Assembly (NCBI GenBank): GCA_902510635.1
Contig: CABXCB010000001.1
Location: 5,399-69,398 of the forward strand
DNA length: 64,000 bases
Reading direction: 5' to 3'
Source of the DNA: an uncultured Pelagibacteraceae bacterium
GTDB taxonomy: Bacteria > Pseudomonadota > Alphaproteobacteria > Pelagibacterales > Pelagibacteraceae
Shown piece by piece: positions 32,636 to 38,333 of the stretch; the stretch's first letter is position 1; each line of letters begins with the position of its first letter. Below the pieces are notes generated by a model. That model was given only the letters and a program-made list of their open reading frames with translations, made no database searches and was not told where the DNA came from. Both the position numbers and the translations under genes were made by a program.

Positions 32636-33034
32636 ATGAGTGAGAAAAAATATCTTGCAAAAATTATAGCAAAAGATCCAAATGGTCTGCAGGTAATATC
32701 TGCCTGTTGTTCGGATGGTAAAGTAAAAGTTGATGAGATAAAATTTCTAAAAAAAAATAAATTATTTTTACTATCAATTGAAAGATTTAAGAAAGAAAAA
32801 GATAAAAATCAAAAAATTAAAAGTATATGTAAATTTGAATTTGTAGATCGAGTTAAATCAAAAAATATTAACCAAAATGAAAAAGATATCATTTTAGAAC
32901 TGTTGACAATTAACCTTTTTAAACTGGGCGAGAATTTTGAGATTACACTTTTATTTAATAATAATGCATTTATAACATTATCCACAGAAGTTTTGGAGAT
33001 AACTCTTGAAGATCAAAATAAATTAAATGATTAA
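32636..33034 (+). CDS. DUF2948 family protein
   Basis: LQVISA motif, size and murA-X-hisD position typical of alphaproteobacteria. Confidence 0.8.
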   Translation: MSEKKYLAKIIAKDPNGLQVISACCSDGKVKVDEIKFLKKNKLFLLSIERFKKEKDKNQKIKSICKFEFVDRVKSKNINQNEKDIILELLTINLFKLGENFEITLLFNNNAFITLSTEVLEITLEDQNKLND

Positions 33035-34292
33035 AATATTAGACTGTAAAAATTCAAATTATTTATCCAGATTAAAACTGATACTTGAGAAAAGGAGATC
33101 TGGAAGTAAAACTAATACAGATATTGTGACTAAAATTGTAAAGGATATAAAAAAAAACAAACAAAAAGCATTATTAAAGTACGAAAAAAAATTTAGTAAA
33201 AATAATAAAGTAAAACCAACAAAGAAAGAGATAAACAGATCAATAAAATCTTTAGATCCCAAAATAAAAAATGCAATTGATTTTGCTTATTCTAGAATTT
33301 TGAAATTTCATTCATTGCAAAAATCTAAAAATATTAAATATGTAGATAAACAAAATAATATAATTGAATATAAATTTATTCCTATCCAATCTGTTGGTAT
33401 ATACGTTCCATCTAATTTGCCGTCAACATTATTAATGAACGCAATTCTTGCAAAAAAAATTGCTGGGGTAAAAAGAGTTGTGCTTGCCAATCCAAGACTA
33501 AATGGAAAATTAGATCCTGCTGTAATGTATGCTGCAAAAAAATGTGGTATATCTGAAATAATAAGTGTTGGAGGTAGTCAAGCAATTGCTAGTTTGGCAT
33601 ATATTCAAAAAGTAAATAAAATAGTTGGGCCAGGAAATAATTATGTCGCCAGAGCTAAAAAAGAAGTTTTTGGAGATGTTGGGATAGAAGGAATAGCTGG
33701 GCCAAGCGAAATAACTGTTGTAGCAGATAAAAATACAAATTTAAAAGAAGTTTTGACATCTTTAGTTGGCCAAGCAGAGCATGACATTAATTCACAATGT
33801 ATACTGATAGTAAATAATCAAGATTTTATAAAATCTTTAAAAAAAGCTTTAAGTAATGAATTAAATAAAATTCCAAGAAAAGATATTGCTAAAAAAAGTC
33901 TTTTGAAAAATGGATTAATTATTAGAGCATATAACAATAAACAAATAATTGATTCAATTAATGAAATAGCTCCAGAACATTTAGAGTTGAATCTAAAAAA
34001 TTATAAAAAGTTAATAAGTAAAATAAATAATGTGGGAAGTATTTGCATTGGAAAATACTCTGCAATGGCTATTACAGATTATAATGTTGGAACAAACCAT
34101 GTTTTGCCAACACTTGGATCTGCAAAATTTTCTTCAGGATTGAATGTTGGTGAATTTTATAAAAAAATAAGCTACATAAAGTTATCTAAAAAAGGCATTG
34201 AAGTTATTGGTAAGAAAGCTATAACTCTTGCCGAGTATGAAGGTTTAATTGGTCATGCTCAAAGTATAAAATCTAGAATAAGGAGAAGTTAG
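33027..34292 (+). CDS. hisD: Histidinol dehydrogenase
   Basis: [29 protein letters not shown]. Confidence 0.96.
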
Positions 34293-34294
34293 TT

Positions 34295-34510
34295 TTGGCA
34301 AAGCAAGATACACTTGAGTTCAAAGGAAAAGTTATTGACCTACTTCCTAATGCTATGTTCCGTGTGCAGTTAGAAAATAATCATATAATTACTGCTCATA
34401 CAGCTGGCAAATTAAGAAAAAATAGAATTCGAGTATTGCAGGGAGACAATGTTACAGTGGAAGTTACTCCATATGATCTAACTAAGGGTAGAATAATTTT
34501 TAGGTTTTAA
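34295..34510 (+). CDS. infA: Translation initiation factor IF-1
   Basis: [36 protein letters not shown]; TTG start with AGGAG RBS. Confidence 0.97.
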
Positions 34511-34512
34511 GT

Positions 34513-34587
34513 GGCCTTGTAGCTCAGTAGTAGAGCAGTACCCTGAAAAGGTATGTGTCGTTTGTGCGATTCAAACCAAGGCCACCA
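34513..34587 (+). tRNA. tRNA-Phe(GAA)
   Basis: GGCCTTG/CAAGGCC acceptor stem, GTACC-CTGAAAA-GGTAT anticodon arm, ACCA end; atypical D-loop (AGTAGTA) and T-loop (TGCGATT). Confidence 0.92.
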
Positions 34588-34703
34588 CAAAAATAATGTT
34601 AAAAATACACATTTCATTTAGCTTGCAATAGATATTAAAATCTAATAACTAATGTCCAAGCTAAATAATAGCTTAAGTTAATAACAATAAAAGAAAGAGT
34701 AAT

Positions 34704-34913
34704 ATGAGTCTAAAAGGTAAAGTAAAATGGTTCAATGGCAAAAAAGGTTATGGTTTCATTGAACGTGAAGATAAAGAAAAAGATGTATTCGTACATGCTT
34801 CAGCTGTAAGAGAAGCAGGTTTAAGATTTTTAAACGAAGGTGACGAATTAACATTTGAAGTTGAAGATGGTGATAAGGGCCCAAGTGCGGTCAAGCTAGA
34901 GAAGACAAGCTAA
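34704..34913 (+). CDS. Cold-shock domain protein (CspA family)
   Basis: GKVKWFN, KGYGFI (RNP1), DVFVHAS (RNP2). Confidence 0.96.
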
Positions 34914-34929
34914 TCTAATTCAATAAAAT

Positions 34930-34975
34930 TTGTATAGGAGTATTCTTAGTTTTGATCTAAGCTATTCCTATACAA
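34930..34975. terminator. Long hairpin after csp gene, probable terminator
   Basis: TTGTATAGGAGTA...CTTAG-loop-CTAAG...TATTCCTATACAA inverted repeat 16 nt after the csp stop, followed by TTCTT. Confidence 0.7.
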
Positions 34976-34982
34976 TTCTTCC

Positions 34983-35010
34983 TTGCATTTATAATTTTAG
35001 ATGCTATTAA
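34983..35010 (+). promoter_or_regulatory. Putative sigma70 promoter for the His leader/tRNA-His/hisS unit
   Basis: TTGCAT (34983-88), 16 nt spacer, TG-n-TATTAA (35005-10); predicted +1 close to the leader ATG at 35018. Confidence 0.55.
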
Positions 35011-35017
35011 ACTTACA

Positions 35018-35092
35018 ATGTTTAATAAAATTTACATATTTGTATCTAAACACAGACATCATTTTCATGCTGGCTGCACGCTAGCTATTTAA
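35018..35092 (+). CDS. Putative His-rich leader peptide (not in ORF track)
   Basis: MFNKIYIFVSKHRHHFHAGCTLAI*; 4 His codons within 6 codons, directly upstream of tRNA-His-hisS-hisZ-hisG. Confidence 0.8.
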   Translation: MFNKIYIFVSKHRHHFHAGCTLAI

Positions 35093-35141
35093 TCATTTAA
35101 TAAATTTAAATTTAATAACAATTAGTATAAAACAACAATAG

Positions 35142-35216
35142 GCCCTGGTGGTGAAATGGTTATCACGAAAGTTTGTGGAACTTTAGTTTTTGGTTCAATT
35201 CCAAGCCAGGGTACCA
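35142..35216 (+). tRNA. tRNA-His(GTG), alphaproteobacterial type with G1:U72 and A73
   Basis: GCCCTGG/CCAGGGT acceptor, GTGA/TCAC D-stem, AAAGT-TTGTGGA-ACTTT anticodon arm, TTCAATT T-loop, ACCA end. Confidence 0.95.
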
Positions 35217-35220
35217 AAAA

Positions 35221-36618
35221 ATGAAAATAGAAAATAAATTAATTCCTGGGTTACCGCCAGGTTTTGAAGATAGATGGGACAAAAAATTATCTCTTAAAAT
35301 AAAACTAATAAGAACAATAGAGAATAATTTTGTAAAATATGGATTTGATCCATTAGAAACACCATCTTTTGAAATTAGTGAAAATATAGGATCATTTCTT
35401 GCAGATGATGATAGCAATCCTATGTCCGATGTTTTTTCTTTTAAGGACGGCGAAAAAAATATTACCCTTCGATATGATCTATCAAGTCCATTAGCTAGAT
35501 TTGTGGCGCAAAATAATCAACAGCTTCCTTCAATTTACAAGCGATATGCGATTCAAAATGTTTTTCGAAATGAAAAAGCTGGAAATGCTCGATATAGAGA
35601 ATTTACCCAAGCTGATTGTGATATTGTAGGAAACGTTAATCCGGCACAAGCAAATGCTGAACTTTGTAATTTAATTGTAAGCACTATTCTGGCTTGTGGA
35701 TTAAAAAAAGACCAGTTTGTTGTTAATATTAGTAACAGAAAAATTGTTAAAGGTTTAATTGAAGAACTTAAAATATCTGCTGAAAAACAAGCAAAAGTTA
35801 TGAGAGCTATAGATAAGCTGGATAAGCCTGGTTTTGGATTAAAGGGAGTTGAAGACTTATTAAAAAAAGAAAGAATAGATATTAGCGGCGCAGTTACAAA
35901 AGGAGCAGATTTAAGCGATGGTGAATCTTCAGAAATAATTAACTTTTTAAAAATTAGAAATTTAAAAGAATTAAAGGACAGCTTAAAAAATCCATTATCT
36001 CAAGAAGGAATTAAAGAATTAGAAGACTTGTTAGAGATAGCAAGTTATGGAGATTATTTAGATCAGATAAAAACCAATTTTACAATTGTTAGAGGACTAG
36101 CTTATTATGATGGATTTTGTGTTGAAACAAATTTGAAGTTCAAAGTCACTAATAACAAAGGCAAAGAAGTTGATATTGGAAGTATTTGTTCAGGAGGGCA
36201 ATATAATAAATTAATTTCAAGATTTAAAGGAGTTGATATTCCTGGCACCGGGATGAGTATTGGTGTAGATCGACTGCTATTTGTAATGATGCAATTGAAA
36301 CAAATAAAAGTTGATGAAAAAAAACCAGTAATTGTATGTGTTATGGATGAAAAATATTTAAAAAATTATTATGAAATCTTAAAAGTATTAAGAGAAAATA
36401 ATATTAATTCAGAAATATTTTTAGATAGTAAGAAAAATCTTGGAAAACAATTAACTTATGCAAATAAAAGAGAGTGTCCTGTAGCTGTTATTTGTGGCGA
36501 GAATGAATTTAAAGAAAATACAGTTACTCTAAAAAATCTTCTAGGCATTAAAGGAGATAATAATCAAAAGACAGTTAAAAAAGAAAATTTAGTTAATGAA
36601 ATCAAAAAACTTATCTGA
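35221..36618 (+). CDS. hisS: Histidine--tRNA ligase
   Basis: PGFED, LRYDLSSPLARF, FRNEK..RYREFTQADCD, VRGLAYYDG, SGGQY, SIGVDRL; true start is ATG 35221 (the ORF-track start at 35173 lies inside tRNA-His). Confidence 0.95.
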   Translation: MKIENKLIPGLPPGFEDRWDKKLSLKIKLIRTIENNFVKYGFDPLETPSFEISENIGSFLADDDSNPMSDVFSFKDGEKNITLRYDLSSPLARFVAQNNQQLPSIYKRYAIQNVFRNEKAGNARYREFTQADCDIVGNVNPAQANAELCNLIVSTILACGLKKDQFVVNISNRKIVKGLIEELKISAEKQAKVMRAIDKLDKPGFGLKGVEDLLKKERIDISGAVTKGADLSDGESSEIINFLKIRNLKELKDSLKNPLSQEGIKELEDLLEIASYGDYLDQIKTNFTIVRGLAYYDGFCVETNLKFKVTNNKGKEVDIGSICSGGQYNKLISRFKGVDIPGTGMSIGVDRLLFVMMQLKQIKVDEKKPVIVCVMDEKYLKNYYEILKVLRENNINSEIFLDSKKNLGKQLTYANKRECPVAVICGENEFKENTVTLKNLLGIKGDNNQKTVKKENLVNEIKKLI

Positions 36619-37651
36619 AAAAATCCTTAGATTAATAAAGTCTAAAGGTTTTAAAAATATTGAATTAGATCCAGTACTGGAAACAAAATATATTTTGCGA
36701 AGATCAGGGGAAAATTTTAAAAGATTATTATTTTCATTTTACGATCTTAACGGAAAAGAGTTGTGTCTTAGGCCAGATCTAACAATTTCTTCTGTTTTAA
36801 AATTTGTTCAGAAGAAATCAAATAAAAAACAAAAAGTTTTTTATAGTGGTGAAGCATTTAGAAAAACTTATAAAAAACAAGAATCTATAATTAAAAATCA
36901 AATTGGTTTTGAAATATTAGGTTCAAAAAATAAACAATCGGAAGATAGAGAAATTATAGATACGTCAATAAATATTTTAAAAAGTAGTGGTTTTAAAAAA
37001 GCAGTTTTAAAAATTGGAAATGTTGAATTATTTAATCTTCTAATTAATAAGCTTGATATTCCAAGAAGATGGAAAAACAGATTAAAAAGATATTATTGGA
37101 ACGAAAGTTATTTTAATGAACTTTTAAAAAGATTAGAAACAAACTTAGATATTGATCCTATTTTTGTAGAAACTGATAAATCAAGATATTTAAAAATGAG
37201 AAAACTTAAAAATTCAAAAGAGGTTGCAGGAAGAAGTTATAAAGAAATATTAGATCGCTTTGATATGAAGATAAAGGATCCTAGAAGATCTTCTTCAGGT
37301 AAAATTAATACAAAAATTATTAAAGAATTTTTAAAAATAAAATGTGAATTGAAAAATGCACCTGGTGTATTGAATAAATTTTTTCAAAAATATGGACTTA
37401 ATATTTTTGTTGGTAAAGAGTTTTTTCCATTCAATAAAATAAATAACAAAAATTTAAGAGTAGAATTTTCTGCATCAAGTGGAAGGGATGTAGAATTTTA
37501 TAGTTCGATGATTTTTTCTATAGAAGTTCAAAAAGGCCAAAAAATAAAAAATTTTATTTCAGGTGGAAGATACGATGAATTAACAAGCAACTTAGGTTTC
37601 AGAAAAGTTTCAGCAGCTGGAGCAGCAGTAAATATGAATGTCTATGAATAA
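36596..37651 (+). CDS. hisZ: ATP phosphoribosyltransferase regulatory subunit
   Basis: HisRS-like fold: CLRPDLT, YSGEAFR, QIGFE, SGGRYD; between hisS and a short hisG. Confidence 0.9.
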   Translation: MKSKNLSEKILRLIKSKGFKNIELDPVLETKYILRRSGENFKRLLFSFYDLNGKELCLRPDLTISSVLKFVQKKSNKKQKVFYSGEAFRKTYKKQESIIKNQIGFEILGSKNKQSEDREIIDTSINILKSSGFKKAVLKIGNVELFNLLINKLDIPRRWKNRLKRYYWNESYFNELLKRLETNLDIDPIFVETDKSRYLKMRKLKNSKEVAGRSYKEILDRFDMKIKDPRRSSSGKINTKIIKEFLKIKCELKNAPGVLNKFFQKYGLNIFVGKEFFPFNKINNKNLRVEFSASSGRDVEFYSSMIFSIEVQKGQKIKNFISGGRYDELTSNLGFRKVSAAGAAVNMNVYE

Positions 37652-38333
37652 GAACACTATAAATATTGGGATACCATCCAAGGGCAGATTGAAGAAAGAT
37701 ACTTTAAATATTTTTAAGACAAAAAAGTTAAGAATTTACTCTGAAAGAGGAGAAAGAGACTTATTTGGCTATATAAAAAAATCTGATGTAAAAATTATAT
37801 ATCTACATGCTAGGGAATGTATTGAACAATTATCTTTAGGAAATATTGATGTTGGTTTTTCTGGTATAGATTTACTAAAGGAAAGTGAAATAAATATTCA
37901 AAATAAAATTAAAGTTATAAAAAAATATGAATTTGGTAAAGCAAACCTTGTTCTTGCGATACCTGACCTGTGGATAGATGTACAAACTTTACTAGATTTA
38001 GATGAGGTTGCAGATGAATTTAAAAAAAAGAAAAAAAAACTTTTAAGAGTTGCAACAAAATATCCTAATTTAACAAGGGAATTTTTATATTCAAAAGGTG
38101 TAACTCAATTTCAACTTGTAAAAAGTTTAGGAAGCACAGAAGTAGCACCATTCACGGGTACTGCAGAAATAATATCTGATATAACTAGCACTGGAGCAAC
38201 ATTAAAAGCTAATAATCTAAGGGTATTGAGAGATGGAGAGATCTTGAAATCGCAAGCTTCTATGATGGTTTCCAAATTAAGTGCTAATAAGAACGGAATC
38301 AAAAAACTGTTAAAATTACTTTCGAATATTTAA
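37638..38333 (+). CDS. hisG: ATP phosphoribosyltransferase (short form)
   Basis: IPSKGRL, GIDLLKE, RVATKYP, GSTEVAP, DITSTGATLKANNL. Confidence 0.95.
   Translation: MSMNKNTINIGIPSKGRLKKDTLNIFKTKKLRIYSERGERDLFGYIKKSDVKIIYLHARECIEQLSLGNIDVGFSGIDLLKESEINIQNKIKVIKKYEFGKANLVLAIPDLWIDVQTLLDLDEVADEFKKKKKKLLRVATKYPNLTREFLYSKGVTQFQLVKSLGSTEVAPFTGTAEIISDITSTGATLKANNLRVLRDGEILKSQASMMVSKLSANKNGIKKLLKLLSNI

Follow-up and report, generated by a model that had tools for sequence, protein, structure and literature searches.

A putative histidine-sensing leader peptide in front of tRNA-His, hisS, hisZ and hisG in SAR11 bacteria

What is the role of a small open reading frame (ORF) crowded with histidine codons that stands directly in front of the gene for tRNA-His, the gene for its synthetase and the gene for the first enzyme of histidine synthesis? 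The SAR11 bacteria, among the most abundant organisms of the sea, are known for the small number of their regulators, and most of the control elements described from them are riboswitches. The question is raised by a stretch of 64,000 nucleotides (nt), here called the window, from an uncultured member of the Pelagibacteraceae, a SAR11-type marine bacterium (contig CABXCB010000001.1, positions 5,399 to 69,398; assembly GCA_902510635.1 of 912 kb, 28% G+C and 68% complete). An earlier reading of this DNA, referred to below as the original prediction, had proposed that the ORF is a leader peptide that senses charged tRNA-His and regulates the genes downstream of it. Our analyses argue for a histidine-sensing leader of some kind, which we consider quite probable. 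The sensor is the well-supported part of this interpretation, as the histidine codons of the frame appear to be under selection and keep a fixed contact with a hairpin; we infer the translation of the ORF, its start site, the role of the hairpin and the response to histidine.

In the window, the locus opens with a promoter-like site, termed P1 (34983-35010, on the plus strand like all features described here), which consists of TTGCAT (34983-34988), a 16-nt spacer and TGc-TATTAA, with the TG at 35002-35003 and TATTAA at 35005-35010. Seven nucleotides further on, the ATG at 35018 begins an unannotated ORF of 24 codons (35018-35092), without a Shine-Dalgarno sequence, whose translation is MFNKIYIFVSKHRHHFHAGCTLAI. 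Four in six of its codons between 35051 and 35068 (CAC, AGA, CAT, CAT, TTT, CAT) specify histidine, namely CAC at 35051 and CAT at 35057, 35060 and 35066. A GC hairpin found both by a terminator scan and by folding (35069-35085; about -8.9 kcal/mol) has its first base directly 3' of the last of these codons. It consists of 6 base pairs (bp) including one G-U pair, formed by the arms GCTGGC (35069-35074) and GCTAGC (35080-35085), and of the 5-nt loop TGCAC. The stop codon of the ORF (35090-35092) lies 4 nt 3' of the hairpin, within an AT-rich spacer of 56 nt (35086-35141) that bears a U-rich tail, TATTTAAT, at its 5' end and a TAGTAT/TATAAA box (35123-35131) near its 3' end, and that leads to tRNA-His, hisS, hisZ and hisG. 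All the parts listed in the original prediction, from the promoter-like site and the histidine-rich ORF with its abutting hairpin to the last of these genes, were thus recovered at their expected positions.

The region 5' of tRNA-His and hisS was then read in 53 loci, which represent 12 genera of the family. The neighbourhood formed by a cold-shock gene (csp), tRNA-His and hisS was present in 134 of the 151 family genomes sampled. An ATG-initiated ORF of 19-33 codons, with 2-5 histidines in the eight codons that end at the hairpin, occurred in 52 of the 53 loci. In 51 of these 52, the gap from the last histidine codon to the hairpin was 0 to -2 nt, and in all 52 the stop codon fell within the hairpin or 3-7 nt past it. 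The N-terminal parts of the encoded peptides could not be aligned; 44 distinct peptides were found, and even the closest relatives of the window leader share only the end HRHH-x-HAGCTLAI with it. The histidine codons are specific to the leader frame: among 45 distinct relatives there were 3.07 histidine codons per nine codons in the leader frame, as opposed to 0.36 and 0.13 in the other two, which carry on average 2.3 and 1.4 stops over the span of the ORF, while the background share of histidine in long ORFs is 1.6%. The codon adjoining the hairpin specifies histidine in all 45 of the distinct sequences, as CAT in some and as CAC in others.

The hairpin itself, found at the same site in 52 of the 53 loci, falls into at least four sequence classes (GCTGGC/GCTAGC, GCTRRGC/GCTTRGC, ATAGCC/GGCTAT and ATTGCC/GGCAAT). 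The third and fourth classes are distinguished by a compensatory exchange of A-U for U-A, and many of the hairpins contain G-U pairs, which are compatible only with an RNA of the plus strand. The element stays with tRNA-His and hisS whatever gene lies upstream (csp, tRNA-Phe or others), and the spacer from the hairpin to the tRNA is kept at 47-61 nt. Both comparisons that the original prediction had called for in SAR11 relatives consequently turned out in its favour: the ORF, its histidine codons and the hairpin persist across the family while the remainder of the peptide drifts, and different hairpin sequences occupy the same site with wobble and compensatory changes.

A related arrangement was found in a sister family of the same order (loci L051-L058 and L062-L064), where hisS is not preceded by a tRNA gene. 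Here an ORF of 11 codons with 3-4 histidines, for example MFKFKHHHYHI, has its stop 1 nt 5' of a hairpin of 9 bp, in which compensatory changes are clear. Past this hairpin come a conserved patch rich in C (ACCCC, T-rich thereafter) and the start of hisS, ahead of which a Shine-Dalgarno-like GGAG or GGAA is present in two of the three genera. The AUG of the sister-family leader can also pair with a CAU histidine codon, forming a small 5' hairpin. Neither a small ORF with three histidines in seven codons nor the leader hairpin turned up ahead of hisS in the 15 other alphaproteobacterial families that were sampled; the unpublished genome G236 was not among the genomes used. Since the leader is present in the sister family and none was seen in these 15, a histidine leader before hisS looks like a trait of the SAR11 order, and having a tRNA gene inserted between the two seems, on the same comparison, to be a trait of the main family. 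In another alphaproteobacterial family (locus L070, genome G259), tRNA-His precedes hisS by about 90 nt; it is headed by a plain site resembling a promoter, and a histidine-rich ORF is missing. Linkage of tRNA-His to hisS is therefore not confined to SAR11.

Downstream of the leader, the tRNA-His gene (anticodon GTG, 35142-35216) was identified by ARAGORN and scored 60.9 bits against the Rfam tRNA model. It has a G1:U72 pair, A73, an encoded CCA and a G at position -1, and ARAGORN found no further tRNA-His in the 68% complete assembly. The synthetase gene hisS (35221-36618; Pfam tRNA-synt_His and HGTP_anticodon) begins 4 nt past the CCA and lacks a Shine-Dalgarno sequence; 3' processing of the tRNA would therefore leave a nearly leaderless hisS message. 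Its end overlaps the 5' end of hisZ (36596-37651), the regulatory subunit of ATP phosphoribosyltransferase, a paralogue of the synthetase that lacks the anticodon-binding domain (351 amino acids, Pfam tRNA-synt_His only). The end of hisZ in turn overlaps the 5' end of hisG (37638-38333; Pfam HisG, E = 8.8e-36), which encodes the short-form ATP phosphoribosyltransferase of the first histidine synthesis step. In several relatives of a single genus (L007, L009, L010, L013, L020, L031 and L065), the tRNA-His before hisS was missed by ARAGORN; it has a T loop AGCGTAA instead of TTCRANN and a D loop without the GG pair. A canonical copy elsewhere was not found in five complete genomes with this odd tRNA-His, which seems to be their sole one.

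How might such an element work? The small ORF would encode a leader peptide whose translation gauges how much charged tRNA-His is available, with transcription starting at or beside the ATG of the ORF. Under a shortage of His-tRNA(His), the ribosome translating it would stall on the histidine codons. Beyond the codon in its A site, a ribosome covers about ten bases more. With the last histidine codon in the A site it would therefore cover the 5' arm and the loop of the hairpin, which could not form, and transcripts from the upstream promoter would run on through the spacer into tRNA-His, hisS, hisZ and hisG. When His-tRNA(His) is plentiful, the ribosome would reach the stop just past the hairpin and leave, and the free hairpin with its U-rich tail would end or hold up many of the transcripts. 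In this manner the unit would raise all three determinants of the level of charged tRNA-His (the tRNA itself, the synthetase and the enzyme that begins histidine synthesis), while a second, unregulated promoter just before the tRNA would probably provide a basal level. Because an A-site ribosome reaches over the 5' arm and loop, direct masking is the simplest model, and it would account for the last histidine codon abutting the hairpin everywhere in the family. We give masking of the hairpin by a stalled ribosome, combined with premature ending of the transcript, a probability of roughly 55%.

The structure of the leader bears on this mechanism. Folding with and without a ribosome block gave no antiterminator or second helix, and the whole leader folds with z = -1.0 relative to shuffled sequences. 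The hairpin is the only structure, as the original prediction had anticipated in stating that a classical multi-hairpin terminator/antiterminator is missing, and a choice between the two is therefore not available to this leader. In all lineages the ORF runs into or through the hairpin, a geometry that also suits occlusion by the ribosome of the kind known from pyrBI. The hairpin and U-rich tail of the window were flagged by the terminator scan, a simple rule that returned 2 sites in 1 kb where 0.3 were expected. An Rfam search (cmscan) of 34400-35400 with E values up to 10 yielded two tRNAs and noise only, and at the gathering score 11 related loci yielded tRNAs only. Neither this region nor the 11 related loci gave an Rfam match to a T-box riboswitch, for which the leader is in any case too short and unstructured.

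Two further pairings were considered and set aside. The region of the start codon (AUGAUUA) can pair with the tail past the hairpin (UAAUCAU). This pairing is not general: it amounts to -2.7 kcal/mol in the window and is absent in three genera, and the mean energies were -3.9 for cognate, -3.0 for non-cognate and -2.4 for shuffled combinations. In some lineages (L011, L019, L021, L023, L026, L061 and others) it is strong, extending over 6-10 bp, with a covarying AUGAC/GUCAU in L023; there the leader in its entirety would become a loop, with the start codon concealed. Complementarity between the leader and the tRNA was likewise not supported, the cognate duplex energy (-21.3) lying within one standard deviation of that for shuffled leaders (-18.2, standard deviation 4.2).

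Where transcription would begin can be judged from the position of the promoter. The distance from the end of the TTG hexamer to the leader ATG is 28-30 nt in 40 of the 52 loci, so that in most lineages the transcript would probably start at or beside the A of the ATG and be leaderless. In 9 of the 52 loci the distance is 36 nt, and in these lineages, which belong to two genera, a short 5' leader without a Shine-Dalgarno sequence would remain. The spacing thus fits, in most lineages, the leaderless translation that had been suggested for the window.

Four marine metatranscriptome sets from four studies were available as contigs only, from which starts, ends and levels of transcripts are not readable. 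Contigs from three studies bridge the hairpin and spacer to tRNA-His (35069-35219, without differences from the window, 35056-35238 and 35069-35178), and one from the fourth study bridges tRNA-His to hisS (35167-35384). The junctions are covered piecewise, no single contig spanning the leader through hisS. Contigs of the cold-shock gene from two studies end at 34986-34992, just past the long inverted repeat of that gene. Across the predicted start, contig depth passed from 14 to 580-1375 in one run and did not rise in three others, and no conclusion was drawn from it. The RNA contigs fit read-through from the leader promoter into tRNA-His and hisS as a single transcription unit.

The leader promoter is nevertheless probably accompanied by another one. 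A TAnnAT box lies 12-13 nt before the 5' end of the tRNA in nearly all of the 52 related loci (10-13 nt when scored as TAnnAT/TATAAA); it reads TAGTAT at 35123-35128 in the window and TAATAT, TATTAT or TAAGAT elsewhere. The other tRNA genes of the genome with recognisable promoters have their -10 box 9-12 nt before the tRNA, and because of this shared geometry we consider the TAnnAT box probably to be a second, basal promoter (P2) of tRNA-His and hisS, for which no -35 partner is visible by eye. A basal promoter would be sensible for genes as essential as these. As to the closed feedback loop of the original prediction, in which the sensor governs the tRNA that it senses together with the synthetase and the first biosynthetic enzyme, the RNA contigs fit the single unit that it presupposes; given the likely P2, the loop through the leader need not be the sole source of these transcripts.

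Several observations weigh against hairpin masking with premature termination. Given the TAnnAT box, transcription of the genes that follow may owe little to the leader. The U-rich tail follows the hairpin in 13 of 36 hairpin variants of the family and is U-poor in the other 23, and an intrinsic stop is therefore doubtful outside some lineages. Stalls at the earlier histidine codons would leave the hairpin free, only the last one to three codons being close enough to it, and a ribosome that finishes at the stop codon would also melt the hairpin, which would complicate the timing of regulation. Direct masking also agrees less well with the sister family, where 7 nt separate the last histidine codon from the hairpin. 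Finally, in one locus of the main family (L048, genome G104), the sole exception to the conservation described above, the upstream gene differs and the ATG frame stops ahead of the histidine codons, the hairpin and two histidine codons being kept; this leader may be a decaying copy or may use a start other than ATG.

Different scenarios might explain the same element. That a chance ORF and hairpin have met in an AT-rich intergenic region would be in keeping with the failure of the whole leader to fold better than its shuffles and with the frequency of histidine clusters in unused frames, of which there are 58 (at least four histidines in seven codons) in all six frames of the assembly. This corresponds to about 0.004 per 130-nt stretch, and the full composite of a short ATG-initiated ORF, a histidine cluster and an abutting GC hairpin is nearly unique, occurring twice in the whole assembly with the leader as one of the two sites. 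As frame, histidine codons and hairpin are moreover kept in 52 of 53 loci and recur in the sister family, a chance origin has a practically negligible probability; judged on these comparisons the leader element is not accidental, and its conservation in relatives removes the remaining doubt. A true element could still be one of two separate units, with the ORF and hairpin forming a small gene or short transcript of their own, whose histidine-rich peptide has its own function, such as metal binding or a role in trans, and with tRNA-His, hisS, hisZ and hisG expressed from the spacer. The tRNA-like geometry of the TAnnAT box and the conserved length of the spacer speak for such a division, and trans-acting leader peptides are known in alphaproteobacteria (peTrpL, PMC7298713). 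Outside its histidines and the residues that the hairpin encodes, however, the peptide is conserved neither in sequence nor in length, the element accompanies hisS without exception in both families, whose architectures differ, the box lacks a recognisable -35 partner, and RNA contigs run from the histidine codons and hairpin across it into the tRNA. We regard two independent units as improbable.

The remaining alternatives keep a single unit and change the way in which it is read. In a reversed logic of the pyrBI type, a ribosome following closely would prevent the hairpin and allow read-through, while slow translation would let the hairpin form, and expression of the tRNA and synthetase would track translation capacity instead of histidine shortage. 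The ORF running into or through the hairpin in every lineage resembles the pyrBI leader, and the earlier histidine codons, at which a stalled ribosome would not reach far enough to mask the hairpin, would pose no difficulty. Such a logic would, however, lower hisG expression under histidine shortage, which is physiologically senseless, and it gives no reason for histidine codons as such or for histidine at the hairpin edge in 45 of 45 sequences; we find it very improbable. A read-out based on Rho or on RNA decay, with the hairpin as a pause site, is in contrast a serious rival, even if we consider it unlikely, because Rho is encoded in five of five complete relatives and G is almost lacking from the leader and spacer. 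The sensing of His-tRNA(His) would be the same, with Rho or decay, and not an intrinsic terminator, deciding the outcome: after translation, the G-poor, unstructured leader and spacer would be free for Rho (or RNase E), a stall on any histidine codon would block loading or passage, and the hairpin would mark a polymerase pause or the edge of a loading site. This would work for a stall at every histidine codon and not just at the last, and it agrees with the U-poor tail of most hairpin variants, with the lack of structure beyond the hairpin and with the C-rich ACCCC patch past the hairpin of the sister family. On the other hand, C too is scarce in the spacer of the main family, at 3-5 per roughly 55 nt, a search of the assembly to which the window belongs (68% complete) gave no Rho, and the last histidine codon abutting the hairpin in every lineage is left unexplained.

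Returning to hairpin masking, its fullest form would be an order-wide SAR11 histidine attenuator without an antiterminator and probably leaderless, in which the main family took the only tRNA-His gene of the cell into the controlled unit, so that one masked hairpin would govern the tRNA, the synthetase and the first enzyme alongside a basal second promoter. We hold this complete version tentatively, at somewhat less than even odds. The leader would very probably work like the hisL and pheM leaders, being built more simply than a textbook one. With the hisL attenuator of Escherichia coli and Salmonella (Rfam His_leader, RF00514), it shares a short ORF with clustered histidine codons before histidine genes and, presumably, ribosome stalling as the read-out of charged tRNA-His. 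In contrast to hisL, it does not match RF00514, it has 2-5 scattered histidines instead of seven in a row, it has a single hairpin without alternative antiterminator or pause structures, it is probably leaderless, and it would control a tRNA gene, hisS and hisZG and not the whole his operon. More generally, the ORF with cognate codons that characterizes the classical trp, his, leu, thr and phe attenuators is present in the SAR11 leader, whereas their antiterminator is not.

Leader peptides before synthetase genes have precedents. In the pheST attenuator of E. coli, the leader peptide pheM, rich in cognate codons, precedes an aminoacyl-tRNA synthetase gene, as the SAR11 leader does; pheM differs in having a terminator/antiterminator pair and in having neither a tRNA gene nor a biosynthetic gene in its unit. 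The pyrBI leader senses UTP via polymerase pausing, and tnaC senses free tryptophan via the nascent peptide at a stop codon. Both resemble the SAR11 element in that the leader ORF ends at a single structure or site, which is available or not according to the position of the ribosome, but neither uses hungry codons of the regulated amino acid. Histidine leader peptides have been predicted before a hisS paralogue and before hisZ in Bacillus by comparative analysis (Naville and Gautheret 2010, PMC2965389). Those are likewise short ORFs with a stretch of histidine codons 5' of genes of the hisS family, but they belong to premature terminators of Firmicutes, have no tRNA in the leader and show no sequence relation to the SAR11 leader, in which terminator character is weak or absent in most lineages. 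In the literature we found no leader peptide ahead of a tRNA gene and no histidine leader from SAR11 or other alphaproteobacteria. A survey of RNA motifs in Pelagibacter does not mention the element; its published candidate table omits intergenic regions that contain tRNAs, which may explain the lack of an earlier description.

If this interpretation is correct, the minimal SAR11 genome would gain a class of control new to it, a conserved amino-acid sensor based on the ribosome, and the element would be a compact case of a leader peptide governing a tRNA gene, the cognate synthetase and the enzyme that opens the pathway. The stripped-down design, with one hairpin, no antiterminator and probably no 5' leader, poses the question of the minimal RNA needed for attenuation, and of whether its effector is an intrinsic stop, Rho or decay.

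Upstream of the locus, the plus strand of the window carries hisD (33027-34292), infA, tRNA-Phe and the cold-shock gene (34704-34913), the inverted repeat of the latter extending over about 34931-34975. The tRNA-Phe gene begins (34513) 2 nt past the stop of infA (34510), and hisD overlaps upstream (34295-34587 region); tRNA-Phe is thus another tRNA embedded in a string of protein genes beside a his gene. In the four metatranscriptomes, the summed contig depths of the cold-shock gene (34694-34881) reached thousands to tens of thousands, far above those of its neighbours.

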